A stretch of DNA of 32,000 nt from an archaeon (GTDB lineage: Archaea > Iainarchaeota > Iainarchaeia > Iainarchaeales > CSSED10-239). The notes under the pieces were generated by a model, which was not told the origin of the DNA, searched no databases, and worked only from the letters and a program-made list of their open reading frames with translations. Of this stretch, positions 6,501 to 25,653 are shown piece by piece (within the stretch, counting starts at the first letter, position 1; each line of letters opens with the position of its first letter). The translations under genes and the position numbers were made by a program. The stretch is taken from NCBI GenBank assembly GCA_035400625.1, contig DAOMZT010000002.1, positions 30,001 through 62,000 of the forward strand. Direction: 5' to 3'.

Positions 6501-8844
6501 TAATTATATCTCTTCCTCTTCCAGAAACCCACTCTTGATGACTCATGGTTTCTAGAACCTTATTTAAACGATTTGCAGTGTCCCCTATTTTTTTTACAGC
6601 ACTTACTCCATCTGCTGGAGACATTAAAATAGGAGTTGCAACTTCTAAAGGGTCTAAATCAAAATAACCTTTGCCATAAATTTCAGCAACAGTTTTGTTA
6701 TTTACTCTATCAATAATCACATCATCAATAAACATTTCTTTTCTAGAAGGGAAAATTTTCACATCTGTAACCGCAACACTTGCAAAGTATGATGGATCTA
6801 TATTTCCCAAAATTTCACTGTGTAAAACAGGACTGCCACTTACATATTCTATGAATTCAATCTGAGCATTAGGAACTACAGATATATAATGTTTAATTTC
6901 ATCTAAATTCATTATATTTATAATTTTTGTTCTATCTATTTCTTGAACAATAGGTCTTAATCTTTGTCTAGTTATTTCTATTCCATCTGTTGTCACTAAA
7001 TCTATATTATTTACTACTGCTGTTTTTTGTGCACCCTTAATTTTTAAACCGGTTTTGCCATTTCCAAACTCCCCTTTTTCAAATTCAAATAATTTCATTT
7101 CTTTACTAAAAGGGTCTGTAATTTTTTCTTTTCCATCTATCACATCAACTACATGTAATCTAGAAGTTCTGCCATCTGCGGTTCTATAGCGTGACAAATC
7201 AAATTCCTTTACACCTTTATTTCCTAATTCATCAATTATTTCAATACTTCTAGTTCTATTGTTTATTGGCCCAGAGTTATATAGTGCCTCTTTCCACTTA
7301 TATTTTGCATTTATATTTTCAAATGTAGTGCTTAACCTCGTAGTTGAGTATATTAAATCTTCTAATGCATCATATTCTTGTTTACTTAAGGTTCTAAGAA
7401 AATCATTAACATTTTCACCAGCAGTTATTGAAGCTAAATATTTATCTGTAACTTTTTTTGTTACAGGATCTGAAGCCTTTGATTGCAAAAATGCATGTGC
7501 TGCCTGATATTTGTCTGATAAAATTTGTGTAACATCTGTTGCTGCTCTTTTTTTTGGAGCAGATAGTTTTGCACCACTATCTGTTATCATTTCTTTAGAA
7601 AATTTACTTGTTGCCCCCGCACCACTTTGTGTTGCATCGATCATGCCATCAGTAAATTCTTCAATATCATATTTGTTTATGTTTCTTTGCAAAATTTCAT
7701 CGTGTGCTAAATTAAATTCTATAAATTTATCTACATCGTTTCTGTAATTTAATTTTGCCTTATATGCCTTACTTATTCTTCCGAAAGGGTCTCTAACTAA
7801 TAATTCTGGATCTTTTGTTAAGATATCTACAAAACCACCCTCTTTAATCCAACCTTTCTTTTTTAGAGTATTAATTGGTTTTAAGAATGCATTTTTAACG
7901 CCAGGTACATGAAATATTCTTGATGCAGCATTAAACAAAAAAGGAGATACAGAACTATACACCATATCTGCAGAAAAATATTGATTAAACATCTTATCAA
8001 ATAAAGAATAAGTATTAATATAACAATTTTCACCACTACATGTTGTTTGCATAGATACAGCAAAATTACTTGTTAAAGAAGTGTTACTTATAACTTTATC
8101 GCTAACTGATTGCCAAGTTTCAGTATCCATTGAATTTAGTTCATTATTTTGCATAGCCCCTTCTATTTTTTCTAGCTCGTAAGAAGACATATCTGAGAAC
8201 ATACCCAAATCTTCTTTACCAGGAATATCAGCATCATCATTTATTATTGTTTCTTTCATTCCTGCAATTAAATCTTTACCAACAACCGTTACTTCTTTAA
8301 AGAAACCGCCTACATTTGAAGCACTTAAGTCATTTTTTCTATATTGCCCAGGCATAGTAAGATAACAATCGCTATTGTTATTATCAAGATCACACCTGCC
8401 AATCCTTAGTGTTTCATTAAGATTAAGTCCGAAATCATAAGAGCCATAGCAAGTTTTGCCTATAAGCATAGGAACCTCAATAGCGTCCATTTGTTTAGAT
8501 GGAACTTGTAATTTTGCACCAACATCTCCTGATTTTGCATCAGTGTCTGCAACAATCAAATTGTTTTTATCTAATGTGTCTCTTTTTGTATTTTCTTCTT
8601 GATCTGAAGTAAGGGTGTCTGCAGAAAATCCCTTTGTTAATATTTCTCCCCATAAAGCATTAACTTCTTCCTTTGATAGCTCTTTAGTCATACAGCCATT
8701 GCCCCTGTCAAAGATAATGCCATCAGAACTAATTTCCTTTTCTGCAAAATAATAGTTATCAGGACTATACCCATATGCAAATATGCTATTACAGAAAAGC
8801 ATTAAAAAGAAAAAAATCCAAATTCTTTTGATTGTTTCATTCAT
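3553..8844 (-). CDS. giant (1763 aa) secreted/cell-surface protein with N-terminal signal peptide and C-terminal membrane anchor; no recognisable domains
   Basis: Uninterrupted 5.3-kb ORF. N-terminus KRIWIFFFLMLFCNSIFA-YG is signal-like. C-terminus is GSGGSGKGGSGFNIPLTPES + TVMAILYMTIILSGFVLIY + TDRRKRK. There is an internal E/K/T-rich linker. Confidence 0.8.
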   Translation of the reverse strand: MNETIKRIWIFFFLMLFCNSIFAYGYSPDNYYFAEKEISSDGIIFDRGNGCMTKELSKEEVNALWGEILTKGFSADTLTSDQEENTKRDTLDKNNLIVADTDAKSGDVGAKLQVPSKQMDAIEVPMLIGKTCYGSYDFGLNLNETLRIGRCDLDNNNSDCYLTMPGQYRKNDLSASNVGGFFKEVTVVGKDLIAGMKETIINDDADIPGKEDLGMFSDMSSYELEKIEGAMQNNELNSMDTETWQSVSDKVISNTSLTSNFAVSMQTTCSGENCYINTYSLFDKMFNQYFSADMVYSSVSPFLFNAASRIFHVPGVKNAFLKPINTLKKKGWIKEGGFVDILTKDPELLVRDPFGRISKAYKAKLNYRNDVDKFIEFNLAHDEILQRNINKYDIEEFTDGMIDATQSGAGATSKFSKEMITDSGAKLSAPKKRAATDVTQILSDKYQAAHAFLQSKASDPVTKKVTDKYLASITAGENVNDFLRTLSKQEYDALEDLIYSTTRLSTTFENINAKYKWKEALYNSGPINNRTRSIEIIDELGNKGVKEFDLSRYRTADGRTSRLHVVDVIDGKEKITDPFSKEMKLFEFEKGEFGNGKTGLKIKGAQKTAVVNNIDLVTTDGIEITRQRLRPIVQEIDRTKIINIMNLDEIKHYISVVPNAQIEFIEYVSGSPVLHSEILGNIDPSYFASVAVTDVKIFPSRKEMFIDDVIIDRVNNKTVAEIYGKGYFDLDPLEVATPILMSPADGVSAVKKIGDTANRLNKVLETMSHQEWVSGRGRDIINQWMKNYNGASYQRFFTKNPMVFGLNFAYWEIKTGGATLFGDTIGLTRWSMYQLPETYTALHIKHKETEEIYKDAYVDFFANTGSDQGDLFMKYLNSVLFWFTTVSMKVTEEIGADWSDATVDFLKDRFQGQIRRSETDDIVLITNNISSGCDNRSCTFNIGSNYIDQKTKDASLSAMELEAAEEAQKNKEKETTEDKEETKEKNNENEKNKDKETTEDKEETKENKEETEDKENEETAEKNKDKEIEEDKGLLDFIKKKESTPKLKSQVDYKSISIVTSTADGIKTNNYLLENTSEKNRKVGQTLISFSHHTDYDGTISKQSTDKAIDLIEAREKGETCGQKVTNLNLLGMPIGKVIPKSFRNHRFVTGSIVAQKFAYIVFPGSGYLISFIGPAIVSDIPMQTMIMPEIHGCIDDEEGLYAHFFVSAQEEERQSKDSKNKVGEAIIDGTNKVENTISKITSGTELEKGVKAGSEKVKEYVEEQIIEDPIVQATFTTGGISNTSVEGRLFFIEIGPRTKCLASGYNDKGVEILKDKDTNIDVTIDKEKGILTVTDENGTRTVIGEKSKDFVRLIGDNLGIPAKVIPRSLSYIPLPNNTDPLFEIDAHGNLTVKNAEFFDCLRAGYEAQTGLSMSSTSKNLTPYLGTTKVTNNINPAGAYTTSFLGNSIIAQGAGLPRLIANGNRSKLTVLGNRSTTIGPIDGKDNTIGKNISVQFEFGQLIYSEEAKAYIMWVETTTETSGNDIKSLKAEVTKSKAINGCDNEELGINFSTTPIKDSDQAAANTEKLNKALEKVGPFQMFDTKTKTFIFYLSDPPECEQRLKIIDKETGEIYDAKISSFEQTPNGISVKTDDGKTHNLEFSAEDGVPRLTYNGDKETLMSAQGKNGSFWYDPETGNWYTTNGNLIPLNDAFKDGVSFGVDGNGKVVGTPGTNVFNIGSGGSGKGGSGFNIPLTPESTVMAILYMTIILSGFVLIYTDRRKRK
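5745..5945 (-). repeat. low-complexity E/K/T/N-rich coding repeat inside the giant protein
   Basis: Encodes KEKETTEDKEETKEKNNENEKNKDKETTEDKEETKENKEETEDKENEETAEKNKDKEIEEDK. A 35-nt unit TTCTTTAGTTTCTTC(C/T)TTGTCTTCAGTAGTTTCTT occurs at 5827-5861 and 5893-5927, a 66-nt period with 1 mismatch. Confidence 0.85.
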
Positions 8845-8856
8845 TTCAATAACACC

Positions 8857-9393
8857 TTACATAAATATCAAATATATAATCATTGCAATCAATGATGGAA
8901 AAATAATCATTAAAAATAACAAAATAACAAACAAAACCATAGCAAAGCTCTTCCATAGCTCTATAAAAGACAGCTTTTCTGATTTTTGCTTTCTAGTTTT
9001 TTTCTTTTTTTCTTTTTTCTCCATAAAGGAATCATATAACATTGATATGAACATTGCAACAATAAATAACATGCCTGTAAATAAAAGATTTACTAGCAGT
9101 AACCTGCCTAATTGTATTAAAACAAACAATACTCCTTCAAAGAAAGTAAATGTTGAAAACTTATCTAGTATTGGTATAAAATAAATTAAAATAAGAACAA
9201 TATAAGTTATAATAAAAATAATAATAAACAAAGACTTTGCAAAACTTAGCTTTTTATCTTTCCTTAGCCAATTAAATTTTTTTTGGAAAAGATAGGTTAA
9301 GCCAATAAAGGGCAAAGATAATAAAGCACTAAATAATAATAACTTAATAAAAACCCACAAGTAATTTAATAAACTTAATAATATTTTGCTCAT
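8857..9393 (-). CDS. polytopic membrane protein (about 5 TM helices, Lys-rich cytoplasmic loop), unknown function
   Basis: Five long hydrophobic segments and a KKEKKKKTRKQKSEK loop. Its stop lies 12 nt upstream of the giant-protein start, so co-transcription is likely. Confidence 0.6.
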   Translation of the reverse strand: MSKILLSLLNYLWVFIKLLLFSALLSLPFIGLTYLFQKKFNWLRKDKKLSFAKSLFIIIFIITYIVLILIYFIPILDKFSTFTFFEGVLFVLIQLGRLLLVNLLFTGMLFIVAMFISMLYDSFMEKKEKKKKTRKQKSEKLSFIELWKSFAMVLFVILLFLMIIFPSLIAMIIYLIFM

Positions 9394-9491
9394 TATGTAC
9401 CCATTTATATATATTTTAGTTAAATATATATTAGCATAATAGTTTTTAAATATTATATACTATTATGTTTATAGGCAAAAGAGGAATAAAT

Positions 9492-10271
9492 ATGGATATT
9501 AAAAAAATAAAGAGAAGAGAACGTAGATTTTATAGGAAAATTGTAGATGGTAAAATAGTTTATAGTGATATACCTATAACTAAACCTAAAAAAGAAACAA
9601 AAGATGTAATTATTGAAAAAAAAGAAACAAAAATAAAAGTAACAAGAGAAATACCTGAAAAAACATTAAAATCTATAAAAGATAATAAGAAATTGAGTGC
9701 TACAGAAAAGCAACAAATTATAGATAAAATACTTATAGAATTAAAAAATGCAATAAATCCAGATATTGACGAAATTGCTGAAATGATTTATGCTCAATTA
9801 TCTGTAAGAGATGTCAATGTTACTCAAGAAAGCGTAAAACATGTTGTTCAAAATAATGCACACCATAGGAGTTCTAGAAAAAAAACTAAGAAAAACACAT
9901 CTTCACAAGATACAGACAAAACTAAAGAAAATTATGATTTCTTAAATGACAGAAAAGAACTAGAAAAAGTATTAGATGATGTTGTTGAAGAAAATAAAAA
10001 AGAAGACATTAGAGCAAAAACTAGAAAAGATAAATTAATTCAAAAAGTAATTCAAAAAGCAAAAGACAATCAAAAAGCAAAAGACAAGAAAAAAAAAGAA
10101 ACTATAAAAAAAACAGAAGAAGTAACAATTAAAAAAACAGAAGAAATCTCAAAAGAAAAACCCATAAAGAAGAAAGAGCCACCAAAACCTAAAAAAGAAG
10201 AATTTAAACTAGATTTTGGAGATATTGAAATAGATGAGACAGATACTGATGAATTGGGATTGAAGTTTTAA
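9492..10271 (+). CDS. Lys/Glu-rich highly charged protein, unknown function
   Basis: GAGG lies about 9 nt upstream of the ATG at 9492; the ORF-track start at 9465 is an alternative. Short tandem coding repeats: CAAAAAGCAAAAGACAA at 10053-10069 and 10071-10087, and KKTEEVTIKKTEEIS. Confidence 0.5.
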   Translation: MDIKKIKRRERRFYRKIVDGKIVYSDIPITKPKKETKDVIIEKKETKIKVTREIPEKTLKSIKDNKKLSATEKQQIIDKILIELKNAINPDIDEIAEMIYAQLSVRDVNVTQESVKHVVQNNAHHRSSRKKTKKNTSSQDTDKTKENYDFLNDRKELEKVLDDVVEENKKEDIRAKTRKDKLIQKVIQKAKDNQKAKDKKKKETIKKTEEVTIKKTEEISKEKPIKKKEPPKPKKEEFKLDFGDIEIDETDTDELGLKF

Positions 10272-11123
10272 TTAAGTTTGGTTGTTTTCTATTCCATTTA
10301 GAGAAGTAGAAGCAACTACTTCTTTACAATTTAATTTGATTAATGATTCACTATTTATATCAACAGTTGCAGGCCACATTGCAAAAGTAGAAGTAATAAC
10401 AATGTCTTCCTCTATACTCAATTCCTCATATGTGCTTTTATTGTGTGTAAAGGCTAATGGAATTGAAGAAGAGAAGATTTTTGAAGATTTAGAAACAACA
10501 GATCTTACATCTTCATAGCTTTCAGGAGCACAAAGATAATAATGATAAGGATTCTCTGCTAACCTATAATCTTTAACGCCTCTAACAGCATCTACCCTGC
10601 TTTGTCTATCAGTGTTTGATCCTTCTTGTTCTTGTATTACAAACTCTGTATTTTTTATTGTGAAATATACAAATCCTTCAGGAGATTTGTTTCTATAAAG
10701 ATAAAATAAATAATCTTGCGATTCTAATGGACGCATTGTTGCTTTAATTGTATGGAACAAATTGTATTTTGCAATATCTAAATAATTATCTGCATCTAAA
10801 TCATTCATATCTGAAAAACCAAGTTTTCCATGTGCATAATAGTCTTGTTTTACAAGAGCCATCAAATAATCGTTTTGTTTAGTTTTTTCCAAATTTAAAT
10901 CAAAATCTAAAGGCGCAGAAACATAAAAAATGGTTTTAAGAACAGAGTTTGTGTATTCTTTATAATATAGATCAGAACTTGCTTGTTCTATTCTGCTTCC
11001 ATATGTAGAAGAATACCTAAACATCAATACTGAAAGAGTTACAATTATAACTAAGAAAAATAAAGCATCTGTTATTGCTGCTTGACCTTTTCTTGTTTTT
11101 ATTCTTGTTATTTTCATTATCAT
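10272..11123 (-). CDS. class III signal-peptide (type IV pilin-like) protein, 283 aa, last gene of the pilus-like operon
   Basis: N-terminus MIMKITRIKTRKG-QAAITDALFFLVIIVTLSVLMF has a basic region, a [KR]G site and a hydrophobic helix. The start abuts the stop of the upstream gene (11123/11124). Confidence 0.6.
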   Translation of the reverse strand: MIMKITRIKTRKGQAAITDALFFLVIIVTLSVLMFRYSSTYGSRIEQASSDLYYKEYTNSVLKTIFYVSAPLDFDLNLEKTKQNDYLMALVKQDYYAHGKLGFSDMNDLDADNYLDIAKYNLFHTIKATMRPLESQDYLFYLYRNKSPEGFVYFTIKNTEFVIQEQEGSNTDRQSRVDAVRGVKDYRLAENPYHYYLCAPESYEDVRSVVSKSSKIFSSSIPLAFTHNKSTYEELSIEEDIVITSTFAMWPATVDINSESLIKLNCKEVVASTSLNGIENNQT

Positions 11124-11636
11124 CTATTTCCAAACTAAAATATATAACCATGCGGGCTCTACATAAAATTGTTGCTGAACAGTAATTGGGTATTTATAGA
11201 CAGTAACATCTTTTGTTAGTAGTGCATTTTTTAATTCTTCTAATCCCTCTGAATTACATATTAGTTTTCTAGGGTTGGTTCCGGTTTCTGCCCAATGTTT
11301 CATAATGTTTTCATCATCTAAATCTCCAACTGTTAATCCTTTATAATTATGACTATTTAGATCTAATGGAGTTACAAAAGCGTTCCAATTGTATTTTGTT
11401 TTTACTCTTTGACAGGTTTTTATAAATTGATTTTGATCTGAGATAATTGGGTTTTCTTTAATTATTCCTGAAATATTAATGGCATCGTTTCTTAAGGAAT
11501 AAAGGTCTGTGTTATTTCTGTAAACATTATATGTGTTTAAGAAAACAGCAAAGAAGATAGTTAGACCTACAAATATAGGTATTAAACTTGGGAGATCATC
11601 TCCAATTGCACCAATATATCCTTTTTTATTTTTCAT
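11124..11636 (-). CDS. class III signal-peptide-like (pilin-like) protein, 170 aa
   Basis: MKNKKG-YIGAIGDDLPSLIPIFVGLTIFFAVFL. 4-nt overlap with the upstream gene (11633-11636). Confidence 0.5.
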   Translation of the reverse strand: MKNKKGYIGAIGDDLPSLIPIFVGLTIFFAVFLNTYNVYRNNTDLYSLRNDAINISGIIKENPIISDQNQFIKTCQRVKTKYNWNAFVTPLDLNSHNYKGLTVGDLDDENIMKHWAETGTNPRKLICNSEGLEELKNALLTKDVTVYKYPITVQQQFYVEPAWLYILVWK

Positions 11637-12349
11637 GTCGTACCCTGTGTACTATTATTTGATGTTGATGTTGTAGCAGAATCTGTATAGTTTACTAAAT
11701 CATGAACAATATTCAAACAAGGAATTAATGTTTTTAAAGGGACCTGATCAGTTGATCCTGTTTCGTTTAAAAAATTTCTGCAAGTATATATGCCTTTTTT
11801 TTCAAGACAAGGGATTAAGAAAACTAAAGGTTTTCCATTTGAGATAATCTTTGCAAAAAGTATTTGTGAATCTATTGAATCTCTTCTAGAAGGATCAAAA
11901 TTAACTGAATAATTTGTTGCAGGCTTTATTTCACAATCTGGAAAATTAGCACAGCCTTCTGATTCATATAAAGCAATTGAGCCATTGTAATCTATATCGT
12001 AGGCAGCATAGATTTTTGGTTTTTCTTTTCTGTCCATTACAGTAAGCACTAATTTTTTTGCATCGCCACCTAGAGAATACGAAGAAACATTTAGTTTATA
12101 TCTCATATTGAAAGCATCAGAAGTGCCAGAATTTGTTTGTATTGTCTTTGGTATTGTTATGAATTTTACTGTACAATAGCTTTCGTTTTCTATTCCGGTC
12201 TTTATTTCTTTTCCTACTTTATAAACAAGTTCATAGCTTTGTCTTGTTTTCAGACTAGAATTAAATGTGCCAATAAAGAAAATTACTATTGCTGCAATTG
12301 CTGTAACAAAAATTAATAAATTTAATTTTGATAAAGAAAATTCAATCAT
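11633..12349 (-). CDS. N-terminally anchored extracytoplasmic protein of the pilus-like operon (no clear class III cleavage motif), 238 aa
   Basis: MIEFSLSKLNLLIFVTAIAAIVIFFIG helix, then a Cys-containing globular part and a Ser/Thr-rich tail. 2-nt gap to the upstream gene. Confidence 0.4.
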   Translation of the reverse strand: MIEFSLSKLNLLIFVTAIAAIVIFFIGTFNSSLKTRQSYELVYKVGKEIKTGIENESYCTVKFITIPKTIQTNSGTSDAFNMRYKLNVSSYSLGGDAKKLVLTVMDRKEKPKIYAAYDIDYNGSIALYESEGCANFPDCEIKPATNYSVNFDPSRRDSIDSQILFAKIISNGKPLVFLIPCLEKKGIYTCRNFLNETGSTDQVPLKTLIPCLNIVHDLVNYTDSATTSTSNNSTQGTT

Positions 12350-12351
12350 TT

Positions 12352-12951
12352 TTAATCAATCTTTTTTAAAAAACACAATTGTCTTGCAGAATCTGTTCCT
12401 ACTTGGCTTCTCATAAATATTCTATAATGTCCACTAGTTAATATAGCGTTTGGGTTATTGCCTCCAAAATTTAAAGCATCCCATTCCTCATCATTATATT
12501 CATTACCACAGTCTCCTAAATTAGCATAATTTATAGCGGTAGGGAGATTAAGACACATTGGAGCTATTGGTCGCTTTGTTGTTTTTTTATCTTCATAGAC
12601 ATATTCCATTAAGGTGCAAGTATCTCCTGCATTACAATAGGAATTACAAAGTGTTTCGTTATGATAGGTCTTTAAGGTAATTTTTTCAAACCTCTCGTTA
12701 AAGCAAGGCTGTATATCAAATTTTACATTTTTTTCTGCAAGTTCTGAACCCATAATAATATCTTCAATTACTCCTTTCATTTCGCTCATGCTTTGTCGTT
12801 TATTACCAATACACACACTTTGGTTAAGATTTATTAATGCCCAGGTACCTGCCATAATTACAAAGCCCATAAGAATGACAGCTACAAGAACTTCAAAAGG
12901 TGCGCTTGCTTGAGCCTTATTACTTCTAATCAAAGATATATTTTTATTCAT
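12352..12951 (-). CDS. Cys-rich class III signal-peptide (pilin-like) protein, 199 aa
   Basis: MNKNISLIRSNKA-QASAPFEVLVAVILMGFVIMAG. Eight cysteines in the predicted external domain. Confidence 0.6.
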   Translation of the reverse strand: MNKNISLIRSNKAQASAPFEVLVAVILMGFVIMAGTWALINLNQSVCIGNKRQSMSEMKGVIEDIIMGSELAEKNVKFDIQPCFNERFEKITLKTYHNETLCNSYCNAGDTCTLMEYVYEDKKTTKRPIAPMCLNLPTAINYANLGDCGNEYNDEEWDALNFGGNNPNAILTSGHYRIFMRSQVGTDSARQLCFLKKID

Positions 12952-12991
12952 CTTAGAAATAGATATAGAAAAAGAATTTAAAAAGCTTTGT

Positions 12992-13222
12992 TTATTTTGT
13001 TGCAGGAGGGGAATTGACTGTTGGTGTAGAAGAGGTTCCTTGGTTTGGCAAATCTGCTACATTAACTGAAGTTTTCATACTGCTATTAAACATAGGTTTA
13101 ATGACAGCAATTAGGACAAGAGCAACTATAGCTATGATAATAAGCATATAGAGGGTTGAAGCACCATCTCCCTGTGCCCTTTTATCAAGCCATAATCTCT
13201 TAAGCTCTTGTTTAAAGTTCAT
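12992..13222 (-). CDS. small class III signal-peptide protein (PF04021-like short pilin), 76 aa
   Basis: LDKRA-QGDGASTLYMLIIIAIVALVLIAVI followed by a short Ser/Thr/Pro tail. Its size and layout match the small archaeal class III signal peptide family as I recall it. Confidence 0.6.
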   Translation of the reverse strand: MNFKQELKRLWLDKRAQGDGASTLYMLIIIAIVALVLIAVIKPMFNSSMKTSVNVADLPNQGTSSTPTVNSPPATK

Positions 13223-13232
13223 TTATATCACT

Positions 13233-13796
13233 TTATGCTGTTTTCTTTGGATAAATTACACAACCTGTTTCTCCACTTTCAGGAAAACCATTTCTTCCAT
13301 CAGTAGGTTGGCTTGGCCACTCTGCATCTGAAAGAGAAGTATTTGAACTTCCCATTAATTCATTAGCTTTAATTGCTTCATCCAATCCAGCTTTTCCATT
13401 ACTGGAACACAAAACACAAAGAACTACTCTTTTAGAAGATGTTCCTGTATATTTTAAGATTGCTTTTGCATTGCCTGTAGCATTAAAATTGCTTATGTTA
13501 TCTATTTCATTTGTAAAGAAAACTTGTTCAGGATCTAATCCTGTGTCTTTAGTTACTCCTTCTGCAGCAAGGGTGTTGGCCTTTTTAAATGTTACAGCAT
13601 CAGTACAATCTACTGAACCTGGATTTTGCATTTGGGTTTTTAATTTTTGTGTTGCTGCTGTTTTTGCATCCCCAGAAACCGTATTTATTCCGCCTATAAC
13701 AGAAATCAAAACACCAAGTATTGCAAGCGCAACAATTGCAGCAATAAGCAACTGGAATGTTGAAGATGCTTGTCCTTTCTTTGTTAATTTAAACAT
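13233..13796 (-). CDS. type IV pilin-like protein, candidate major subunit, 187 aa
   Basis: MFKLTKKG-QASSTFQLLIAAIVALAILGVLISVI. AAGGTGA lies about 10 nt upstream of the ATG, and an AT-box sits in the 90-nt upstream gap. Paralogous to the C-terminal domain of 13887-14654. Confidence 0.7.
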   Translation of the reverse strand: MFKLTKKGQASSTFQLLIAAIVALAILGVLISVIGGINTVSGDAKTAATQKLKTQMQNPGSVDCTDAVTFKKANTLAAEGVTKDTGLDPEQVFFTNEIDNISNFNATGNAKAILKYTGTSSKRVVLCVLCSSNGKAGLDEAIKANELMGSSNTSLSDAEWPSQPTDGRNGFPESGETGCVIYPKKTA

Positions 13797-13886
13797 GATT
13801 TATTTTCACCTTTTTTCTTTTTTTATAAAATATAAATATATTAATGAAATAATATTAACAAAATCTTTTTAAAGCTTGTTATGTAT
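13797..13886 (-). promoter_or_regulatory. candidate internal promoter and RBS for the major pilin gene
   Basis: This is the largest gap in the operon (90 nt). Read on the minus strand it contains ATATATTTATATTTTATAAAAAAAG (TATA-like), followed by AAGGTGA and then the ATG. Confidence 0.35.
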
Positions 13887-14654
13887 TTAGTTTGTACTTG
13901 TTTTTCTAGGATAAACTGCACAAAGGATTTTTTCATCTGTTGTTGAATTTATTGTGGTGTTTATGTCATGTGCCTGAAGAGCTTTTTCTAACCCTGTTTT
14001 GCCATTATCGCAAAGAACACACATCATTACTCTCTTTGAGCTACTCGCTCCATATTTTAAAATATTGTCTTTTGTATCAAAATTAGGTATATTTTCTGGA
14101 TTAATAAAATAAACTTGTTCTGGGCCTAAACCTGTAGTTATGGTTATGCCTTCTTCTATAAGTGTAGATCTAGATTTTGTAAATAGAATAGGATCCGTAC
14201 AGCCCTCTGCACCTAGATTGTTAATTTGATCTTTTATAAGCATTCTTGTGGCCTTTGTAGGGGTGCTTCTACAAGCTATTACAGTCATCATATTTGTAAT
14301 TATTATTGCTAAAATAATTGAGATTACTAATTTTGCAATAAAATTAAATTTATAGTTTCTAATTTTTTTAAAAAATAAACCAACTACCCAAAATAATAAA
14401 TAAAAGACAATATATGATACTGCAAAAATAAATGTTGCAGTAAAAATAAAATTAATTACGTGATTGTTAAAAACACCAGCAATAGGAAACAAAAAAACAG
14501 TTATAACATATAATACAGATACAAATAAACTACCAATTAAAAAAGAACTATCTAGTTTTTTATAAAAATCTGTATTGTGTTTTGTAGATACATTTTCTTT
14601 TTCTAATACAGAATCAATATATTCTTGATCTTCTTTTTTTTTGATATTTTCCAT
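13887..14654 (-). CDS. pilin-domain paralogue fused to an N-terminal polytopic membrane extension, 255 aa
   Basis: The C-terminal 130 aa align with 13233-13796 (CTD..F.K....EG.T..TGL.PEQV.F.N...I.NF......ILKY...SSKRV..CVLC..GK.GL..A......C..YP.KT). The N-terminal 125 aa contain 3-4 hydrophobic helices and no [KR]G-Q site. Confidence 0.55.
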   Translation of the reverse strand: MENIKKKEDQEYIDSVLEKENVSTKHNTDFYKKLDSSFLIGSLFVSVLYVITVFLFPIAGVFNNHVINFIFTATFIFAVSYIVFYLLFWVVGLFFKKIRNYKFNFIAKLVISIILAIIITNMMTVIACRSTPTKATRMLIKDQINNLGAEGCTDPILFTKSRSTLIEEGITITTGLGPEQVYFINPENIPNFDTKDNILKYGASSSKRVMMCVLCDNGKTGLEKALQAHDINTTINSTTDEKILCAVYPRKTSTN

Positions 14655-14698
14655 TTATGAAAACCCTCATAAACTATATAATTTTTCTTAATTTGAAA

Positions 14699-15205
14699 CT
14701 ATATTATAGCATGAGCTAAATTAAATATATAGACTAATATTGATGGCAACACAGCCATTAAAAGAACATCCCAGCCATTTAATTTATCTGGAGTGCTTTT
14801 ATAATCGTCCCAAAGATATCTGTGTTGCTTTGTGTGTTTCTTTATGTGTAATAGATACCATAATATGCCAAAGATTAAAACAGTAACAACCCAAACAACA
14901 CTAAAAGCCACAGTTTTATTTATCTGTAATAAAAATTTACCAAAAAACAACCATAAAAGACTAATTATACCATATGTTGCAGCCATAGAAAACACTGACT
15001 TAAAGATAAGCTTTGCTGTATTACTTTTAAACAAACTTACAAGATTATTAAATAACCAGATGATTACAAACAACAAAGTCATCAAAACTAATAATACAAA
15101 TATAATTGTCAAGATAAAGGTTCCAACAACAAAGCCAAGTATAAGTATAATGATTGCTAAAAAAATAAATAAAATTTTAGTGAAGATGTTCATATGTTTT
15201 TTCAC
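14699..15205 (-). CDS. polytopic membrane protein (4-5 TM), unknown role in the pilus-like operon
   Basis: Almost entirely hydrophobic helices. Same strand as, and flanked by, operon genes. An overlapping plus-strand ORF (14832-15221) looks like a shadow ORF. Confidence 0.45.
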   Translation of the reverse strand: MKKHMNIFTKILFIFLAIIILILGFVVGTFILTIIFVLLVLMTLLFVIIWLFNNLVSLFKSNTAKLIFKSVFSMAATYGIISLLWLFFGKFLLQINKTVAFSVVWVVTVLIFGILWYLLHIKKHTKQHRYLWDDYKSTPDKLNGWDVLLMAVLPSILVYIFNLAHAII

Positions 15206-15261
15206 ATTTTCATGTATTTAATTACTATATTAATAGTTGGAATTGTTTATAAACATTAATC

Positions 15262-15804
15262 TTATGGATTGGAAGTGTAAAGACCCTCTGGTGGTTTAAT
15301 ATTAAAGAAAAACACACAATATGTTGGACAAACACTTGTATCTTGAGTAAGCTGGCTTTGTGTGGTAGAATCTAATTCATCTAGTAGTGATCCTTCCCCA
15401 GATGGCATAAAATTACAATATGCCCAAACATTCATTTTCAGATGCCTTGTTTTTATTCTTAAAACATTATAGTCGTTTACTGAAAAAAGCTTTGGGCCAG
15501 CAACAAAAGCCATGCATTCTTCTGGCAAACCTGTATAATTTGTAATTGTTGTCTTTGAAATATTCCCTTTAAGCATTAAGTCCTCAATAACAAAAGGAGT
15601 TTTCGCGCTTGTCCCTGTGCTTTTAACGGCAGAGATAAGACCTTCTTTTAGTTTCTGGTTGCTTACTATTATTAATTGATTTTGGGTGCTATTAATCATA
15701 TTCATAATAATAACAAGAATTGCTGCACCAAGAATAAACCCGATAAGTAGCCTATAGGCTTCAGAAGCTGAATCATCTCCTTTTTGATTTAATTTTAAAT
15801 TCAT
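15262..15804 (-). CDS. class III signal-peptide (pilin-like) protein, distant paralogue of the 13233 and 13887 pilin domains, 180 aa
   Basis: MNLKLNQKG-DDSASEAYRLLIGFILGAAILVII. Shares NQKLK and TGLPEEC.AF with the TQKLK and TGLDPEQVFF of the major pilin candidate. ATGA start/stop overlap with the platform gene. Confidence 0.55.
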   Translation of the reverse strand: MNLKLNQKGDDSASEAYRLLIGFILGAAILVIIMNMINSTQNQLIIVSNQKLKEGLISAVKSTGTSAKTPFVIEDLMLKGNISKTTITNYTGLPEECMAFVAGPKLFSVNDYNVLRIKTRHLKMNVWAYCNFMPSGEGSLLDELDSTTQSQLTQDTSVCPTYCVFFFNIKPPEGLYTSNP

Positions 15805-18023
15805 AATACCAAATTTGCTATTATTATAGTTAATATAAACAAAACAACTGCAACTGGAAGAGTTTGCGATATCCTGTATTTTACTAATGTCATATTTTCT
15901 TGTTCAATCATTGTTGTAAAATAAGTCATTATTAGAACAATCTCAATCAAATAAATTGCAACAATAATAGTAAAAGAAGTTGCACTTGCAAGCTTGCCAA
16001 TAACATCAACATTAATGGCCGTGCCAAAAGAAGATACAGCACTTAAATCCATTCCTAATTCTGCAAGATTTGTACTTTCTAAAGATTTTGCCATATCTTG
16101 TATCGCCCCAGAACTTGCAACAGAAGCCAGAGTAGAAATAACAACTTTATGAAGAGTTGTTGTTACACCAAGAATAATCGGACCAATAAACTTAGCCATA
16201 CTATTTAATGTTGCAGTAATCTCAGCAATGAGAACAGAAAGCAAACGATTAATCTCATCAGTATTTCTTAGTTGCATAGAATATGAGATTAAGGTTTTTG
16301 CAGCAACATTAACACCCATCTGCACAGAATCAACAACAAGTTGCATAGCACTATTAATTATTGTTGAAGGATTATTCTTTAATGCACCATAATTTCTATC
16401 AAAGACAGCAGATTGTAAAGTTAAACCAAGTATTCTGATATTATCAACAGTTTTGCCAAAAATATCCTTTGCTACAGTAGACTTTGGCAAAAACCTTCTA
16501 GTATGATCAAAAGCATCTTCAATTGGCTTGTTTTCTCCAAGTCTGCTTGCAATAATATAGAGTGAGTCTTTAAATTCTTTTTCTTGAGTTTCGGTTGCAA
16601 GTTGTATTTTTCTCTTATAGACACTTGTAGTGTACGCCCATAAAGAAATTGAAGCAGCAACTGCCAATAATATGGAAAAAATCAGATAATAAGGAGTTAT
16701 TGAATTTTTAGGGTCTTGCCAAAACCTTACTTCATCAGCACACATAAATGTAGGGTCTGCTAATTGTTGTTGCCTTTCTTCTCTTGTACAGTCCCAGTTT
16801 GGGGTGGCTGTGCCATGTTCCCTTTCTAGAATCTTTTCTTTGGTCATACCATAAGATTTTTGTAAAGTAAAGCCAATCGCAGTAAAACCTACTAGAAGTA
16901 TTGCAATAATTATAAAAACATTAATTTGAGTATTTTTAATTCTTAAATGATTCTTTTTTGGAAGTCCAGGAAAATCAGAAGGAATATTTGGTGGTTGGTA
17001 GGTTGGTGGCCTTTTTTTAATAACATTTCGAGCATATAAAAAACAAGCAAGTGGTATAAAAATATTATAAATTAAAATCAAATAAATTGGTTGAGCAAGA
17101 GCAGAACCAGAAAATGCTGAGCCGACAGGTAAAACAATAATCAATAATAATGGTAATAATATACCTAGATAAAACATAATTGTTGCTGGCTGATTTAAAG
17201 TTCTGGCATAGTCTTCAAGTTTGCCTTTTACAGAATCTAGAGTTTCAGACATAGTCTGATCAAGAAGCTGATATCTTTTGCTTTCTGAAGATTCAATAAT
17301 TGATGCTCTAATCTTCATTAATCCTTTCTTTAATTCTATAGAAATATCTCCCCAACGATAAGCCAAATCATCTAAACCTTCAGCAACACTGTTTTTTATT
17401 CCAACCTTTACTTCCCACAATAATTTTTTAAGATCTTCTGCAATCTTTCCATGTCCATGTTCTGAAGCAAACTCTATTGCTTTTTCTAGATTAGGAACTA
17501 GTTTCATAGACATTATCATATAACCTAATATCTCAGGAACAAAAGTTAGTGCCTTAATCTTCTCATCAGAAACTTTCTTTAAAGGATATCTTTGAACAGA
17601 AATAAAAGCAAAAATAAAAAGACCAAAAGGTATTCCAAAAATCAAGAATAAAGCCATCATTGAACTACCAAAGGCTTCAGATAATATACTATATAGAAAA
17701 AAATAAGATAAACCAGAAATTAACAAAGCAAGAAACAACCCTGCAAACAAAACAAACTTTGTTGTTGCTGTATATTCTTCTGCTGTTAAATCCCAATCAA
17801 GAAAATCAATTGCCTTTTGATATTCTTCATTGTATTTCCCATTAACTCCAAGGCTTGGAAACTTTTGATGAACCTTTTTACATAAAGTTACATATTTATT
17901 AGATGTTCTTTTTGTAAGCTTATCTGATGGTTTAGAAAAATCCCTGGAATCTACTGATATGGAACTATAAATTTCGCCAGGGTTCTCTACAGAAGCCTTG
18001 AATTTTTTATATTTATCAGACAT
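15801..18023 (-). CDS. FlaJ/TadC/PilC-like type IV filament platform protein (two T2SSF-like repeats), about 740 aa
   Basis: Polytopic protein with two helical cytoplasmic modules, each followed by TM helices: IKALTFVPEILGYMIMSMKLVPNLEKAIEFASEHGHGKIAEDLKKLLWEVKVG... and KDSLYIIASRLGENKPIEDAFDHTRRF...VFDRNYGALKNNPS.... The start is placed at ATG 18023 (MSDKYKKF). The ORF-track start at 18131 would run through the AT-rich promoter region. Confidence 0.7.
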   Translation of the reverse strand: MSDKYKKFKASVENPGEIYSSISVDSRDFSKPSDKLTKRTSNKYVTLCKKVHQKFPSLGVNGKYNEEYQKAIDFLDWDLTAEEYTATTKFVLFAGLFLALLISGLSYFFLYSILSEAFGSSMMALFLIFGIPFGLFIFAFISVQRYPLKKVSDEKIKALTFVPEILGYMIMSMKLVPNLEKAIEFASEHGHGKIAEDLKKLLWEVKVGIKNSVAEGLDDLAYRWGDISIELKKGLMKIRASIIESSESKRYQLLDQTMSETLDSVKGKLEDYARTLNQPATIMFYLGILLPLLLIIVLPVGSAFSGSALAQPIYLILIYNIFIPLACFLYARNVIKKRPPTYQPPNIPSDFPGLPKKNHLRIKNTQINVFIIIAILLVGFTAIGFTLQKSYGMTKEKILEREHGTATPNWDCTREERQQQLADPTFMCADEVRFWQDPKNSITPYYLIFSILLAVAASISLWAYTTSVYKRKIQLATETQEKEFKDSLYIIASRLGENKPIEDAFDHTRRFLPKSTVAKDIFGKTVDNIRILGLTLQSAVFDRNYGALKNNPSTIINSAMQLVVDSVQMGVNVAAKTLISYSMQLRNTDEINRLLSVLIAEITATLNSMAKFIGPIILGVTTTLHKVVISTLASVASSGAIQDMAKSLESTNLAELGMDLSAVSSFGTAINVDVIGKLASATSFTIIVAIYLIEIVLIMTYFTTMIEQENMTLVKYRISQTLPVAVVLFILTIIIANLVL

Positions 18024-18130: not shown

Positions 18131-18322
18131 ATGGGATTTAAAATCATACAAGATAAAAACAAATGTGTGGGTTGTGGAGCTTGTGTTGCTGTTTGCCCAG
18201 ATAATTGGGTACACCAAGGCGATAAACCCGTACCAAAAAAAGTAAAAATTACAGAAATAGGCTGTAACCAGGTTGCTGCAGATAGTTGCCCGGTTTCTTG
18301 TATAAAGATTGAAAAAGAATGA
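18131..18322 (+). CDS. small single-cluster 4Fe-4S (or 3Fe-4S) ferredoxin
   Basis: 63 aa with CVGCGACVAVCP plus a distal SCPVSC. Strong SD upstream. Confidence 0.85.
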   Translation: MGFKIIQDKNKCVGCGACVAVCPDNWVHQGDKPVPKKVKITEIGCNQVAADSCPVSCIKIEKE

Positions 18323-19191
18323 ATAAGTTATATTTTGGAACTGCGGGAATTCCAGGTATATCAAATGGAGTAATACCAAAGGTAAAAGATCAAACCACCA
18401 AAGGAATATTAGAAGTTGCTTCTTTTGATCTTGATGCTTTAGAGATTGAGTTTGTTAGAGGAGTTTATCTTAAGCTTAATAACAAAGAAAAACTACAAGA
18501 GATAAGAAAGACCGCAGAAGAAAAAAACATTCTTCTTAGTATTCATTGTCCTTATTATATCAACCTTAGTTCTTTTGATCCAGAGATTATTAGAAATAGC
18601 ATAGGTTATATTACAAACTCACTATTAGTTGGACAAGAAATCGGTTCCAAAATCGCATTGTTTCACCCTGGCTATTTTCAAAACCAAGAAAGGGCAATTG
18701 TTCTTGAAAAAATATCTCTTGGCCTAGAGAAGATAATCTCAGAACTTGACAAGCGTGGAAATAAAGAAAAAATAAATATTGGCTTAGAGCTTACAGGAAA
18801 AGAAACGCAAGTCGGTTCTCTTGAAGACATCTTTTATTTCTATGATAAATACAAAGAAGAAAGGGTTTTACCAGTAATTGACTTTTCTCACCAGCACGCC
18901 AGAAAAAACGGATATTTTAAAGAGCAAAAAAATATAAACTCTTTTTTTGAAAAACTAAATAGTTATCCAGATTATGTTAAGCAAATGCATTGCCATATGT
19001 CAGGAATTGAATATTCACCAAAAGGCGAGAGAAACCATGTTATGCTTGAAGATAAAGTAAATGATTTTCCTTACAAAAAGATCCTTGAAAAATTGGTAGA
19101 GAGTAAAGCAAACGGTGTTATAATTTCAGAAAGCCCAATACCTCACAAAGATGCCCTACTTCTAAAAAAAGAATATGAAAAGATAAAATAA
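18319..19191 (+). CDS. AP endonuclease family 2 / endonuclease IV-like TIM-barrel protein
   Basis: Ordered metal-ligand-like motifs IHCPY, FHPGY, LELTG, IDFSHQHA, CHMSG, NHVMLED and ISESP match the Endo IV ligand order as I recall it. ATGA overlap with the ferredoxin gene. Confidence 0.6.
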   Translation: MNKLYFGTAGIPGISNGVIPKVKDQTTKGILEVASFDLDALEIEFVRGVYLKLNNKEKLQEIRKTAEEKNILLSIHCPYYINLSSFDPEIIRNSIGYITNSLLVGQEIGSKIALFHPGYFQNQERAIVLEKISLGLEKIISELDKRGNKEKINIGLELTGKETQVGSLEDIFYFYDKYKEERVLPVIDFSHQHARKNGYFKEQKNINSFFEKLNSYPDYVKQMHCHMSGIEYSPKGERNHVMLEDKVNDFPYKKILEKLVESKANGVIISESPIPHKDALLLKKEYEKIK

Positions 19192-22337: not shown

Positions 22338-22424
22338 TAAATAATTATAAACCTAAAATAATTTAAATATAATTGTATATCAAATTGTTTGTGTAGGTAA
22401 AAATGACAAAACTAAAAGAAATCT

Positions 22425-23378
22425 CTATTGTATGATATCATCTATATCAGAAATAACAAAACCACTTGCTTTAGGGTGGCCATTGCCACCATATTTTCTT
22501 GCAATTTCGGAACAATCAATTGATTTAGATCTTAAACTTACTTTATCAAAATTTTGTTTTTCTCCTGATTTTGCATAACTCTTATACCAAACAATAACCA
22601 ACTCAATATCATCGTAATCTTTATTATTAAAAATATAATCAGAAACAAAACCAGGCTTAAACTGAGAATTTAAAACAAAAGCATTATATCCTTCAAAGGT
22701 TGTTTTCTTGCCTTTATTTATGTCATCTTTTACTTTTGTTTTTATATAAACATCTATTAGTTTTCCTTGATTAGCGATTTCTGCTATTTGAGAATTAAAA
22801 TATTCATCATTGAAATATTTCAAGAAAAGATTTATAATTTCAAATTCTTTTTCTGGATTGTCTTTGTCATTAATTTGCATATATAAAAAATCTACATATT
22901 GTAATATTTCATTAGAATTTGGCAATTCCCATTTCCAGATATCCATATCCTCAACATATCTTGAAAAAAGACAAGGCTTTTTATCAAAATATCTCCAAAC
23001 GATTGTTGATGTTGCCATCAAATCGTGTCTCATGCCAGGTATATCATATTTAGAAAGCTCATCTATTGTGTTTTTGTGATGATCAAACCATATGAAGTTT
23101 TCTTTATATTTCTCTAAAAGCTGAAGCATAATGTTTTTATTAAAACAGAAATCTAAAACAACAACCCTATCAAATCTATCCCAATCAAAACCACAATCAG
23201 AGAAATATTCAAAAATATTCTTTATACCATAATGCACTTCAAAAAAGAAATAATCTTTTCTAAGATCTTCATAGCTTGGAATTTTGTTGTCGTGATTTTG
23301 CATATAATCGTTATAAGTAAAACCTAAAGCAGAAGTTAACCCATCAACATCATTATGATAAAAAATTAGTGTTTTCAT
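22425..23378 (-). CDS. DHH/DHHA1 family phosphoesterase (NrnA/RecJ-like)
   Basis: Motifs YHNDVDGLTSA, VVVLDF, FDHHKNT and GGNGHPKASGF. Confidence 0.8.
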   Translation of the reverse strand: MKTLIFYHNDVDGLTSALGFTYNDYMQNHDNKIPSYEDLRKDYFFFEVHYGIKNIFEYFSDCGFDWDRFDRVVVLDFCFNKNIMLQLLEKYKENFIWFDHHKNTIDELSKYDIPGMRHDLMATSTIVWRYFDKKPCLFSRYVEDMDIWKWELPNSNEILQYVDFLYMQINDKDNPEKEFEIINLFLKYFNDEYFNSQIAEIANQGKLIDVYIKTKVKDDINKGKKTTFEGYNAFVLNSQFKPGFVSDYIFNNKDYDDIELVIVWYKSYAKSGEKQNFDKVSLRSKSIDCSEIARKYGGNGHPKASGFVISDIDDIIQ

Positions 23379-23438
23379 ATTTATTTCGCTTTATTATTTA
23401 TAAATAAATAAAATATAAAAAGATTAAAAAGAGGTAGG

Positions 23439-24044: not shown

Positions 24045-24052
24045 ATAAACAA

Positions 24053-24105: not shown

Positions 24106-24152
24106 AGCATAATTTAAATTGATTTTTGTTATATTATTATATTGATCTTCAT

Positions 24153-25652: not shown

Positions 25653-25653
25653 A

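Follow-up and report, generated by a model that had tools for sequence, protein, structure and literature searches.

Organization of the locus

The window (the whole 32,000-nucleotide stretch of DNA analysed here) comes from a low-GC genome of the Iainarchaeia (Diapherotrites, DPANN), in line with the earlier note's reading of it as DNA of a reduced-genome archaeon. The ten closely spaced minus-strand ORFs at 10272–18023 (g1–g10, Table 1) are real and conserved in relatives. Their coordinates are as previously described, except for the start of g3, for which orthologues and JGI gene calls favour the ATG at 15193 (164 aa) over the GTG at 15205. Direct reading of the sequence also reproduces the junctions: ATGA overlaps at 15801–15804 (g2/g1, 4 nt) and 11633–11636 (g9/g8), a 0-nt junction at 11123/11124 (g10/g9), and a 2-nt gap at 12350–12351. 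Across members of the window's clade with 54–100% platform identity, none of the ten ORFs is disrupted and their order is kept. Compared with the closest strain, the machinery is 100% identical, while DNA identity falls to 78–97% in the pilin genes and in the gene for the giant protein, as expected of exposed filament subunits.

Table 1. Genes of the operon and of its flanks, with the basis of assignment where given.
Feature	Coordinates	Strand	Description	Basis
g1	15801–18023	−	Polytopic platform protein, 740 aa, T2SSF/TadC/FlaJ class	Family homology
g2	15262–15804	−	Pilin-like, 180 aa; class III signal NQKG-DDSASEAYRLLIGF...; paralogue of g5	
g3	14699–15193	−	Polytopic membrane protein, 4–5 TM, 164 aa	TM profile
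g4	13887–14654	−	255 aa; N-terminus cytoplasmic, then 3 TM helices; C-terminal domain is a paralogue of the globular domain of g5	
g5	13233–13796	−	Candidate major pilin, 187 aa; TKKG-QASSTFQLLIAAIVALAIL...	
g6	12992–13222	−	Mini-pilin, 76 aa; DKRA-QGDGASTLYMLIIIAIVALVLIAVIKPMF...; essentially helix only	
g7	12352–12951	−	Pilin-like, 199 aa; SNKA-QASAPFEVLVAVILMGF...	
g8	11633–12349	−	238 aa; N-terminal hydrophobic helix; class III site degenerate in the window's clade (MIEFSLSKLNLLIF)	
g9	11124–11636	−	Pilin-like, 170 aa; NKKG-YIGAIGDDLPSLIPIF...	
g10	10272–11123	−	Pilin-like, 283 aa; TRKG-QAAITDALFFLVIIV...; final operon gene	
Ferredoxin and AP_endonuc_2 pair	18131–19191	+	Divergent from the operon	Pfam
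Conserved neighbours (span)	3553–9393	−		Synteny, termini, TM segments
Polytopic membrane protein	8857–9393	−	178 aa	
Giant secreted protein	3553–8844	−	1763 aa	

The divergent ferredoxin gene seen earlier upstream of the platform gene is confirmed by Pfam, and the ferredoxin/AP_endonuc_2 arrangement is present in every clade member examined (L003, L004, L005, L049–L053, L057, and L058). On the other side, the order of operon, opposite-strand gene (~270 aa), polytopic protein gene (~178 aa), and giant protein gene is found in L001, L004, L005, and L006. The proposed tie between the operon and the giant surface protein extends, as synteny, across the whole class, with the giant secreted protein as a conserved partner. 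This protein carries a Sec signal and, at the C-terminus, a Gly/Ser linker, a TM segment, and an RRKRK tail.

Platform and pilin-like products

By sequence homology, g1 belongs to the T2SSF class, in a TadC-like family whose members span 740–790 aa; the assignment comes through its homologues rather than through the score of the window copy. The latter matches Pfam T2SSF weakly (E = 0.022, 15.1 bits, residues 169–299) and below the gathering threshold (25.2), with a score lower than those in sister lineages; PF00482 is nevertheless matched by 19 of 25 aligned family members (best 1e-6), and P0059 and P0066 of this family exceed the gathering threshold. The homologues (n = 359, 725–810 aa) occur in Diapherotrites/Iainarchaeia, and some are named T2SS F family. 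Of the two T2SSF-like repeats previously proposed for g1, the N-terminal domain has this family support, whereas the C-terminal half shows neither a T2SSF match nor hhalign similarity to the N-terminal half. The AF2 model of g1 is all-helical (pLDDT 77.6); Foldseek with this model gives probabilities above 0.5 solely for PilC (3jc8_Ca) and the OutF cytoplasmic domain (5nbg_B), and neither match is significant.

Six products (g2, g5, g6, g7, g9, and g10) combine a basic leader, a [KR][GA] site, and a hydrophobic stretch (KD14 2.6–3.8). These class III motifs, reported earlier for six proteins, can be read directly and are kept in orthologues from loci at 25–80% identity. Orthologues of g2 at all loci share KGQ(E/A/G)...F(R/N)LLI, those of g7 share KGQE.APFELLVAV, and those of g10 share KGQAA(I/L/V)TDALFFL; the g9 motif KG(F/Y)(L/I)G(P/A)IGDDLPSLIP is invariant across loci. 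Also conserved across all loci is (R/K)AQ(S/G)E(W)..LYML...VKPMF of g6, a gene separated from g5 by 10 nt, with oligo-T tracts downstream. A seventh product, g8, has a degenerate class III signal: its orthologues outside the clade begin with MLG-F(T/S)LSK(L/M)NLLIL, which resembles the bacterial G-FTLxE site, and in the window's clade the Gly of the site is replaced by Glu.

Orthologues of g5 have invariant Q+1, S+4, F+6, LLI, and two Cys residues (C130 and C179); in a wider alignment of 45 sequences the same positions, S+4 excepted, are invariant. The g5 family comprises 306 clusters (50% identity, E ≤ 1e-3), and [KR][GAS]Q is found near the N-terminus in 134 of the 150 best cluster representatives. 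No gene of the set evolves faster: between the window and L049, g5 is 48% identical and the platform 90%. The 90-nt spacer upstream of g5 contains a TATA-like tract and an AAGGTGA Shine–Dalgarno sequence. No sequence match to g5 is seen in Pfam or PDB; the same holds for the subunits generally, whose globular domains the earlier note had not recognised; no sequence family of Pfam, NCBIfam, or PDB matches them. An AF2 attempt on the pilin reached a pLDDT of 39.5; hence, the pilin fold is assigned from N-terminal sequence features alone.

TGL.PE and Cys motifs are common to g2, g5, and g4, and g4 is 38–42% identical to g5 orthologues over about 150 aa (BLAST). The architecture of g4, with three TM helices and a pilin domain, recurs in 8 of the 150 best g5-family cluster representatives, and these eight share the N-terminus KKEDxEY(I/L)DS. 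Orthologues of g3 are found only in L003, L049, L052, L004, and L005, i.e., in the clade without an adjacent ATPase gene, and ATPase-adjacent loci whose downstream sequence is long enough (L001, L006, L017, L036, and L048) lack g3. The protein matches nothing in Pfam or NCBIfam, lacks a GxGD motif, and has a single invariant Asp. The g3 slot of L006 is occupied by an unrelated 308-aa protein with five TM segments.

The locus remains a type IV filament operon, as first proposed: its platform is of the TadC/FlaJ class, and six of its other products carry class III signal peptides. Archaeal type IV pilus-like machinery also serves non-pilus surface assemblies (discussed in PMC4858521), and the filament might be a short pseudopilus or endopilus (similar to T2SS or to the Sulfolobus bindosome) that exports or displays the adjacent giant surface protein, not a long adhesive pilus. 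Strict synteny of the giant protein and the 178-aa polytopic protein with the operon across the class agrees with this, as does the excess of minor-pilin-like genes (g2, g7–g10) over one clear major pilin candidate. However, the giant protein, having its own Sec signal and C-terminal TM/basic-tail anchor, needs no pseudopilus for export, and the fast diversification, promoter-like region, and strong Shine–Dalgarno sequence of g5 fit an abundant exposed filament subunit. We consider the pseudopilus unlikely, and prefer a pilus.

The ATPase, the prepilin peptidase, and the rearrangement

Neither an ATPase nor an A24 peptidase had been noticed in the 32 kb, and the searches agree: there are no Pfam T2SSE or Peptidase_A24 matches among window ORFs of at least 110 aa, with four family ATPases as tblastn queries the best E in the window is 0.87, and no plausible ATPase ORF of the window contains a Walker A motif. 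In sister lineages, a T2SSE ATPase gene (~760 aa) lies directly upstream of the platform gene; this adjacency, and the order ATPase–platform–g2–g5–g6–g7–g8–g9–g10, is seen in L001, L002, L006, and about 20 GTDB Iainarchaeia loci. An ATPase gene immediately upstream of g1 is the ancestral state, and its separation from g1 in the window's clade is a lineage-specific rearrangement, whose breakpoint is the ferredoxin/AP_endonuc_2 pair in the slot of the ATPase gene.

Platforms at least 54% identical to that of the window always have ferredoxin upstream. The matching ATPases form a discrete clade, whose members share at least 72% identity and are set off by a gap down to 60%, and are always stand-alone, beside RPA and MCM; the stand-alone ATPase has its full length, and both its Walker A (GSRGAGKTS) and its QEDTLE motif are intact. 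Presence of platform and ATPase in the same genome was judged by proximity of NCBI protein accessions and, for one pair, by a shared contig listing. HPV66274.1, 100% identical to g1, pairs with the ATPase HPV66024.1, 250 accession numbers apart, and an 813,239-bp contig is listed for the clusters of both, with the ATPase at about 190 kb. Further platform/ATPase pairs come from five MAGs (HOZ35624.1/HOZ35988.1, HRS42927.1/HRS42342.1, HOW29756.1/HOW29074.1, HRT02794.1/HRT02505.1, and MFA7708515.1/MFA7709077.1). Judged by accession numbers and the 813-kb contig listing, the ATPase of the window's clade is ~250 genes away on the same chromosome.

Thus, the ATPase is not missing; its gene was moved by the rearrangement, and from its place beside RPA and MCM it acts in trans. 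The platform, earlier taken for an orphan, is not one, since an ATPase of the same family is retained elsewhere: the appearance is a quirk of gene order. At none of the loci examined, whether split or unsplit, does a prepilin peptidase gene lie in cis, and none was located elsewhere; its absence from the window is therefore usual in this group.

The platform and pilins might still be a decaying remnant, non-functional after the rearrangement removed the ATPase. Absence of ATPase and peptidase in cis, loss of the g8 cleavage-site Gly, and the reduced T2SSF score of the platform could be taken as signs of decay, but the ten ORFs persist intact and in order over the whole range of platform identity, the same genomes retain an ATPase with intact motifs, and the clade gained g3 and g4 rather than losing genes. 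Decay is, hence, highly improbable compared with a working pilus.

A probable type IV pilus of Iainarchaeia

The region is most probably an operon for the platform and pilins of a type IV pilus that is archaeal and conserved throughout Iainarchaeia, with the ATPase in trans. By analogy with characterised type IV pilus systems, a prepilin peptidase encoded elsewhere would remove the short basic leaders of g2, g5, g6, g7, g9, g10, and possibly g8; the TadC/FlaJ-like g1, powered by the 768-aa hexameric ATPase of the FlaI/TadA family, would pull the processed subunits out of the membrane for polymerisation. The major subunit would most likely be g5, with g6 as an alternative or co-subunit, and g2 and g7–g10 may be minor, tip, or priming pilins. 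Two clade-specific proteins, g3 and g4 (the latter with a 3-TM anchor carrying a pilin domain), are putative membrane accessories.

The core of archaeal type IV pili is an ATPase/TadC module; their pilins evolve fast and are encoded in cis or in trans, and the archaeal adhesion pili, e.g., Haloferax PilB/PilC with PilA, Methanococcus Epd pili, and Sulfolobus Aap/Ups, are built on a FlaI/VirB11-family ATPase and a TadC/FlaJ module (Makarova, Koonin & Albers 2016, PMC4858521). Here, in contrast, ~250 genes separate the ATPase gene from the TadC gene, a pair usually taken as a single module; the platform is long (740 aa) with one recognisable T2SSF domain only; the ATPase (~768 aa) has a Cys/His-rich N-terminal extension; the pilins have no Pfam or NCBIfam match; and the 3-TM-anchored pilin paralogue g4 and polytopic g3 are additional. 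The locus also resembles the DPANN "dark-matter" type IV pilus islands, which contain FlaI, TadC, and surface proteins, with flanking unrecognisable signal-peptide proteins interpreted as pilins (Makarova, Wolf & Koonin 2019, PMC6393860, Fig. 2A). Divergent pilin sets beside FlaI/TadC in DPANN genomes have, accordingly, been noted before; the text of that paper gives examples only and does not describe a split of ATPase and platform. Similar to the bacterial Tad/Flp pilus are the TadC-like platform, the helix-only g6 (76 aa), which recalls Flp, the several pseudopilin-like genes downstream, and the likely role in adhesion; however, a single fused platform replaces TadB and TadC, secretin, TadZ, and TadV are absent in cis, and g6 has neither the Flp G-xxxxEY motif nor a PF04964 match.

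A motility locus is hardly credible: the ATPase and platform superfamilies are homologous to those of the archaellum (FlaI/FlaJ with archaellins), the platform is FlaJ-like, and some JGI annotations name the family ATPase "archaeal flagellar protein FlaI", but the subunits are small, diverse pilin-like proteins, and no Pfam match to archaellin (PF01917), FlaH, FlaF/G, FlaC/D/E, or FlaX is found among the window products and the called genes of the related loci examined.

The pilus would be Tad/Epd-like, non-archaellar, and probably adhesive, and the giant secreted protein, as a probable adhesin, would belong to the same surface-attachment module. Although uncharacterised, the locus is best regarded as an ordinary type IV pilus of archaea.

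Operon layout and the platform protein

The ten consecutive genes (g1–g10) assigned earlier to one operon are seen as minus-strand ORFs in the ORF listing, between positions 10272 and 18023, and the junctions reported between them are confirmed to the nucleotide, with ATGA overlaps at 15801-15804 and 11633-11636, genes abutting without a gap at 11123/11124, and a 2-nt gap between g7 and g8. The other intergenic gaps are 10-90 nt. The start of g3 is most likely the ATG at 15193 (164 aa), matching the orthologues and the JGI gene calls. None of the ten proteins reaches a Pfam or NCBIfam threshold. The window, with a GC content of about 30%, also carries an archaeal-type AdoMet synthetase (PF01941) and other housekeeping genes. 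A 394-aa homologue of F420-0:gamma-glutamyl ligase (PF01996) matches the full 218-position profile across aa 13-392, which implies an insertion of about 170 aa; a weak PBECR4 nuclease-like match is found at aa 156-237.

The platform protein g1 matches T2SSF (PF00482) below the threshold (15.1 bits, E = 0.022, aa 169-299; gathering score 25.2). Full-length orthologues at 44-45% identity pass the gathering score (P0059, 25.4 bits; P0066, 27.0 bits), and 19 of the 25 aligned family members match T2SSF at E <= 0.01, the best at 1e-6. There are 359 homologues of similar size, several bearing PF00482 or the name "type II secretion system F family protein"; the taxon-named ones are nearly all Candidatus Diapherotrites, Iainarchaeum, or "archaeon". 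Hence g1 is accepted as a predicted member of the TadC/FlaJ class by transitive homology, not from the window sequence alone. The AF2 model of g1 (25-sequence alignment, pLDDT 77.6) is all-helical and polytopic. Foldseek of the whole model against PDB yields nothing at E <= 0.001; only two entries have a probability > 0.5, neither of them significant, namely, the PilC model 3jc8_Ca (E = 0.5) and the OutF/GspF cytoplasmic domain I 5nbg_B (TM 0.56 over 112 columns, E = 5). The g1-family profile has no match in PDB at E <= 1.

The earlier note had proposed two T2SSF repeats in g1. No member is matched over more than one stretch; the second repeat is unproven, since the C-terminal halves of five family members have no T2SSF match at E <= 1, and hhalign of the N- against the C-terminal half detects no internal duplication (0.5% probability). 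In the model, the predicted helix pattern of the second half (a long helix, four short ones, and a long one) resembles that of the first half, as a pattern only.

Coordinates of features in the window and in the loci of its relatives (L-numbers)
Locus	Feature	Coordinates	Remark
Window	Platform g1	15801-18023	
Window	g8	11633-12349	
Window	178-aa polytopic protein	8857-9393	
Window	Giant protein	3553-8844	1763 aa
Window	F420-0:gamma-glutamyl ligase homologue	19775-20959	
L054	PF06550 gene	2218-3069	Gene order SPP, MCM, RPA, ATPase
L056	PF06550 gene	1-116	Gene order SPP, MCM, RPA, ATPase
L059	PF06550 gene	1476-2324	Gene order SPP, MCM, RPA, ATPase
L006	ATPase with intein	6186-10004	
L059	Downstream of stand-alone ATPase	10771-16610	PKD/Big-domain surface protein and 739-760 aa protein
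L060	Downstream of stand-alone ATPase	10771-17447	PKD/Big-domain surface protein and 739-760 aa protein

Location of the ATPase gene

The absence of an ATPase and an A24 peptidase in cis holds: T2SSE and Peptidase_A24 are matched by none of the ORFs of at least 110 aa in the 32-kb window, tblastn of four ATPases of the relevant family against the window gives a best E = 0.87, and no Walker A motif is found there in a plausible ATPase ORF. Sister lineages with a platform 44-47% identical to g1, namely, L001/L002 (contigs of 1.19 and 0.83 Mb) and L006, have a T2SSE ATPase gene directly in front of the platform gene, its end only a few bases away; this ATPase is 764 aa long in L001 and 1272 aa in L006, the latter because of an intein. 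These neighbourhoods are syntenic with the window and share with it the pilins, a gene of about 270 aa on the opposite strand, the polytopic protein of about 178 aa, and the giant protein. The ATPase gene that adjoins the platform in these orthologous loci does not lie beside it in the window and its clade, with ferredoxin in the upstream position; at platform identity of at least 54%, the upstream genes are always a divergent ferredoxin and AP_endonuc_2 (all loci examined: L003-L005, L049-L053, L057, and L058).

A motif specific to the ATPase family, encoded with AT-rich codons, was used to scan GTDB genomes and hit 42 loci, about 20 with ATPase–platform adjacency and nine, in low-GC genomes, with an ATPase and no platform downstream. 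The ATPase of the window's clade was not listed by a search seeded with a distant ATPase; it was reached by the motif scan and by a seed from a split locus, i.e., one lacking the adjacency. The search from the split locus reveals a discrete ATPase clade, at least 72% identical within and followed by a gap to 60%, which mirrors the gap in the platform family. The split-clade ATPase gene stands alone, in the vicinity of RPA and MCM, with a presenilin/SPP-family gene beyond MCM.

HPV66274.1 (locus tag PK655_02365) is 100% identical to the window platform; the clade ATPase P0497 corresponds to HPV66024.1, which precedes it by 250 accession numbers. For both proteins, the longest contig given in the cluster is one of 813,239 bp (JGI Ga0116249_10000002), with the ATPase at about 190 kb. 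Five more MAGs show the platform/ATPase pairing within 289-682 accession numbers (HOZ35624/HOZ35988, HRS42927/HRS42342, HOW29756/HOW29074, HRT02794/HRT02505, and MFA7708515/MFA7709077). From the proximity of NCBI accessions and the common contig listing, we infer that ATPase and platform reside in the same genome. The platform, regarded in the earlier note as an orphan, is therefore an orphan in gene order only, as the stand-alone ATPase of the same genomes is full-length, with intact Walker A and B motifs; the main interest of that note is explained away by an ATPase kept in trans after a mere rearrangement of gene order.

The aligned ATPase family is about 760 aa long and has an invariant N-terminal C-x2-C...C-x2-H motif (C26, C29, C41, and H44) that looks zinc-binding; an intein containing a LAGLIDADG endonuclease extends several members to about 1270 aa. 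In L059 and L060, the stand-alone ATPase is followed by a surface protein of 1056-1314 aa and a 739-760 aa protein with no Pfam match; the 739-aa gene of L059, considered as a second platform, is unrelated to the platform. A PemK/VapB toxin–antitoxin pair lies upstream. ATPases of Iainarchaeia, at 71-74% identity, also occur on a 1-kb "Spirochaetia bacterium" MAG contig (SABI01000790.1) and a "Thaumarchaeota" MAG contig, probably due to binning contamination, and Methanocellales MAG contigs (L023, L034, and L037) carry a more distant ATPase–platform pair (39-46% and 26-27% identity).

An A24 peptidase was found neither in the window nor within 10 kb on either side of the related loci examined, split or unsplit, so its absence in the window follows the rule for the group. 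PibD is often encoded elsewhere in archaea, and absence in cis is common (PMC4858521). Two candidates for a cryptic prepilin peptidase were rejected, g3 (no A24 match, one invariant Asp, no GxGD motif) and, with the same negative outcome, the L006 protein of 308 aa and 5 TM helices that occupies the corresponding position. At a distance of 5-6 kb, the stand-alone ATPase has a conserved neighbour that encodes a presenilin/SPP-family GxGD aspartyl protease (PF06550); that this protease might stand in for the prepilin peptidase is pure speculation.

Pilin-like proteins and accessory genes

A short basic leader, a [KR]-[GA(S)] site, and a hydrophobic helix of about 20 residues are present in g2, g5, g6, g7, g9, and g10, and the class III sites proposed earlier for these six products are recovered by a FlaFind-style check ([KR][GA] followed by a strongly hydrophobic stretch). 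The predicted mature N-termini are kept in orthologues from loci with a platform only 38-47% identical to that of the window, and this conservation excludes chance occurrence of the motifs. The conserved forms, with a hyphen at the predicted cleavage site, are KG-QAFSTFKLLIAAIVA in g5, (K/R)A-Q(S/G)E..LYML...VKPMF in g6, KG-QE.APFELLVAV in g7, KG-F(L/I)G(P/A)IGDDLPSLIP in g9, and KG-QAA(I/L)TDALFFL in g10. In g8, the class III pattern is seen only in orthologues outside the window's clade: other lineages have a bacterial-like MLG-FTLSK, and the window's clade has MIEFSLSK. Since Gly at the cleavage site is replaced by Glu, processing of g8 may have been lost in this clade.

The nine downstream products do not match PF04021, PF07790, PF01917, or the NCBIfam pilin/class III models at E <= 0.1, none of 45 g5-family members matches pilin or class III models, and the pilin-like products have no PDB sequence match. 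The g5 family, comprising 306 clusters at 50% identity, has invariant Q+1, F+6, and two Cys, and no relative in Pfam or among PDB sequences; its profiles against PDB retrieve only TM-helix noise. The AF2 model of g5 from a 3-sequence, window-only alignment (helix 12-57, then strands) is unreliable (pLDDT 39.5).

Orthology mapping gives a core set across the class (platform, g2, g5, g6, g7, g8, g9, and g10), with g3 confined to the window's clade and g4 to a subclade of it. The proteins g2, g4, and g5 are paralogues sharing TGL.PE and Cys motifs; in place of a class III signal, g4 has a cytoplasmic N-terminus and three TM helices, an architecture that recurs, together with the pilin domain, in eight of the 150 top-ranking cluster representatives of the g5 family. 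No catalytic motif is recognisable in g3, a protein with 4-5 TM segments.

Of the whole set, g5 evolves fastest (48% identity between the window and the related locus L049, compared to 90% for the platform). The 90-nt spacer in front of it contains a TATA-like tract and a strong ribosome-binding site, AAGGTGA, and oligo-T tracts follow g6. These features point to g5, perhaps along with g6, as the likely major subunit.

By homology with characterised type IV pili (T4P), prepilins would enter the membrane and lose their leaders to a class III signal peptidase; a FlaI-family hexamer would dock on the cytoplasmic domain of the TadC-like platform and drive polymerisation, with g5, possibly with g6, as the polymerised subunit, and the minor pilins g2 and g7-g10 priming or capping the filament.

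Possible surface role and relation to known pili

The giant protein is Sec-secreted; its C-terminus, a Gly/Ser-rich linker followed by a TM helix and an RRKRK tail, resembles the sorting signals of sortases or archaeosortases. The 178-aa polytopic protein directly upstream is conserved in all relatives; as an archaeosortase candidate it is rejected, showing no similarity to the PF09721 protein of distant loci. In those loci, the PF09721 exosortase-like gene occurs together with another giant protein, encoded upstream of the ATPase. The conserved link between the operon and a giant, C-terminally anchored protein suggests a surface-attachment module. Compared to the closest strain, L003, DNA identity is 100% in the platform, g2, g3, and distal housekeeping genes (22000-28500), or 97-100% with the housekeeping flanks taken in, 89-97% in g4-g10, and 78-89% in the giant protein. 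This divergence is mosaic (window 5500-14500), suggesting, at the level of sequence, diversifying selection or recombination on exposed parts, and supports surface exposure of the pilins and the giant protein.

The operon could instead be a pseudopilus or a display machine for the giant protein, which is possible, but less likely, as the giant protein has its own Sec signal and anchor. Decay of the operon after ATPase loss is contradicted by ORFs that stay intact and syntenic over the whole range of 54-100% identity, by an ATPase that has been kept, and by the gain of genes. An archaellum is excluded, as PF01917, FlaH, FlaF/G, FlaC/D/E, and FlaX have no Pfam match in the window or the relatives' loci.

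The system belongs with the archaeal T4P built on an ATPase/TadC module and would work like them (PMC4858521). DPANN loci with unrecognisable pilins beside FlaI and TadC have been noted before (Makarova et al., PMC6393860). The present system stands out in that the ATPase and platform genes are uncoupled in one clade, the long platform has a single recognisable T2SSF domain, the pilin families are missing from Pfam, NCBIfam, and PDB sequences, and a 3-TM-anchored pilin paralogue recurs.

A more far-reaching reading, which we consider improbable as a whole, unites the pilus operon, the 178-aa protein, and the giant adhesin in a host- or surface-attachment apparatus of Iainarchaeia, re-engineered in the window's clade. 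In this unlikely scheme, the ATPase would have been uncoupled, with g3 and the paralogue g4 in its place; g4 would be an "anchor pilin" fixed in the membrane, serving as base or terminator of the filament; and the globular domains of the pilins would be new folds. To our knowledge, such an anchor pilin has been described for no T4P.

DPANN archaea are believed to rely on contact with other cells, with pili as leading candidates for establishing it. The analysis defines a complete class-wide pilus gene set of Iainarchaeia (ATPase, platform, and seven core pilin-like genes), a set whose pilin-like genes are all missed by current domain databases. A platform operon that lacks an ATPase can be an artefact of rearrangement and not new biology, a caution for automated T4P detection rules that demand an ATPase gene next to TadC. 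Between near-identical strains, the pilins and the putative giant adhesin show a mosaic hypervariability, which suggests that selection at the cell surface acts on them.
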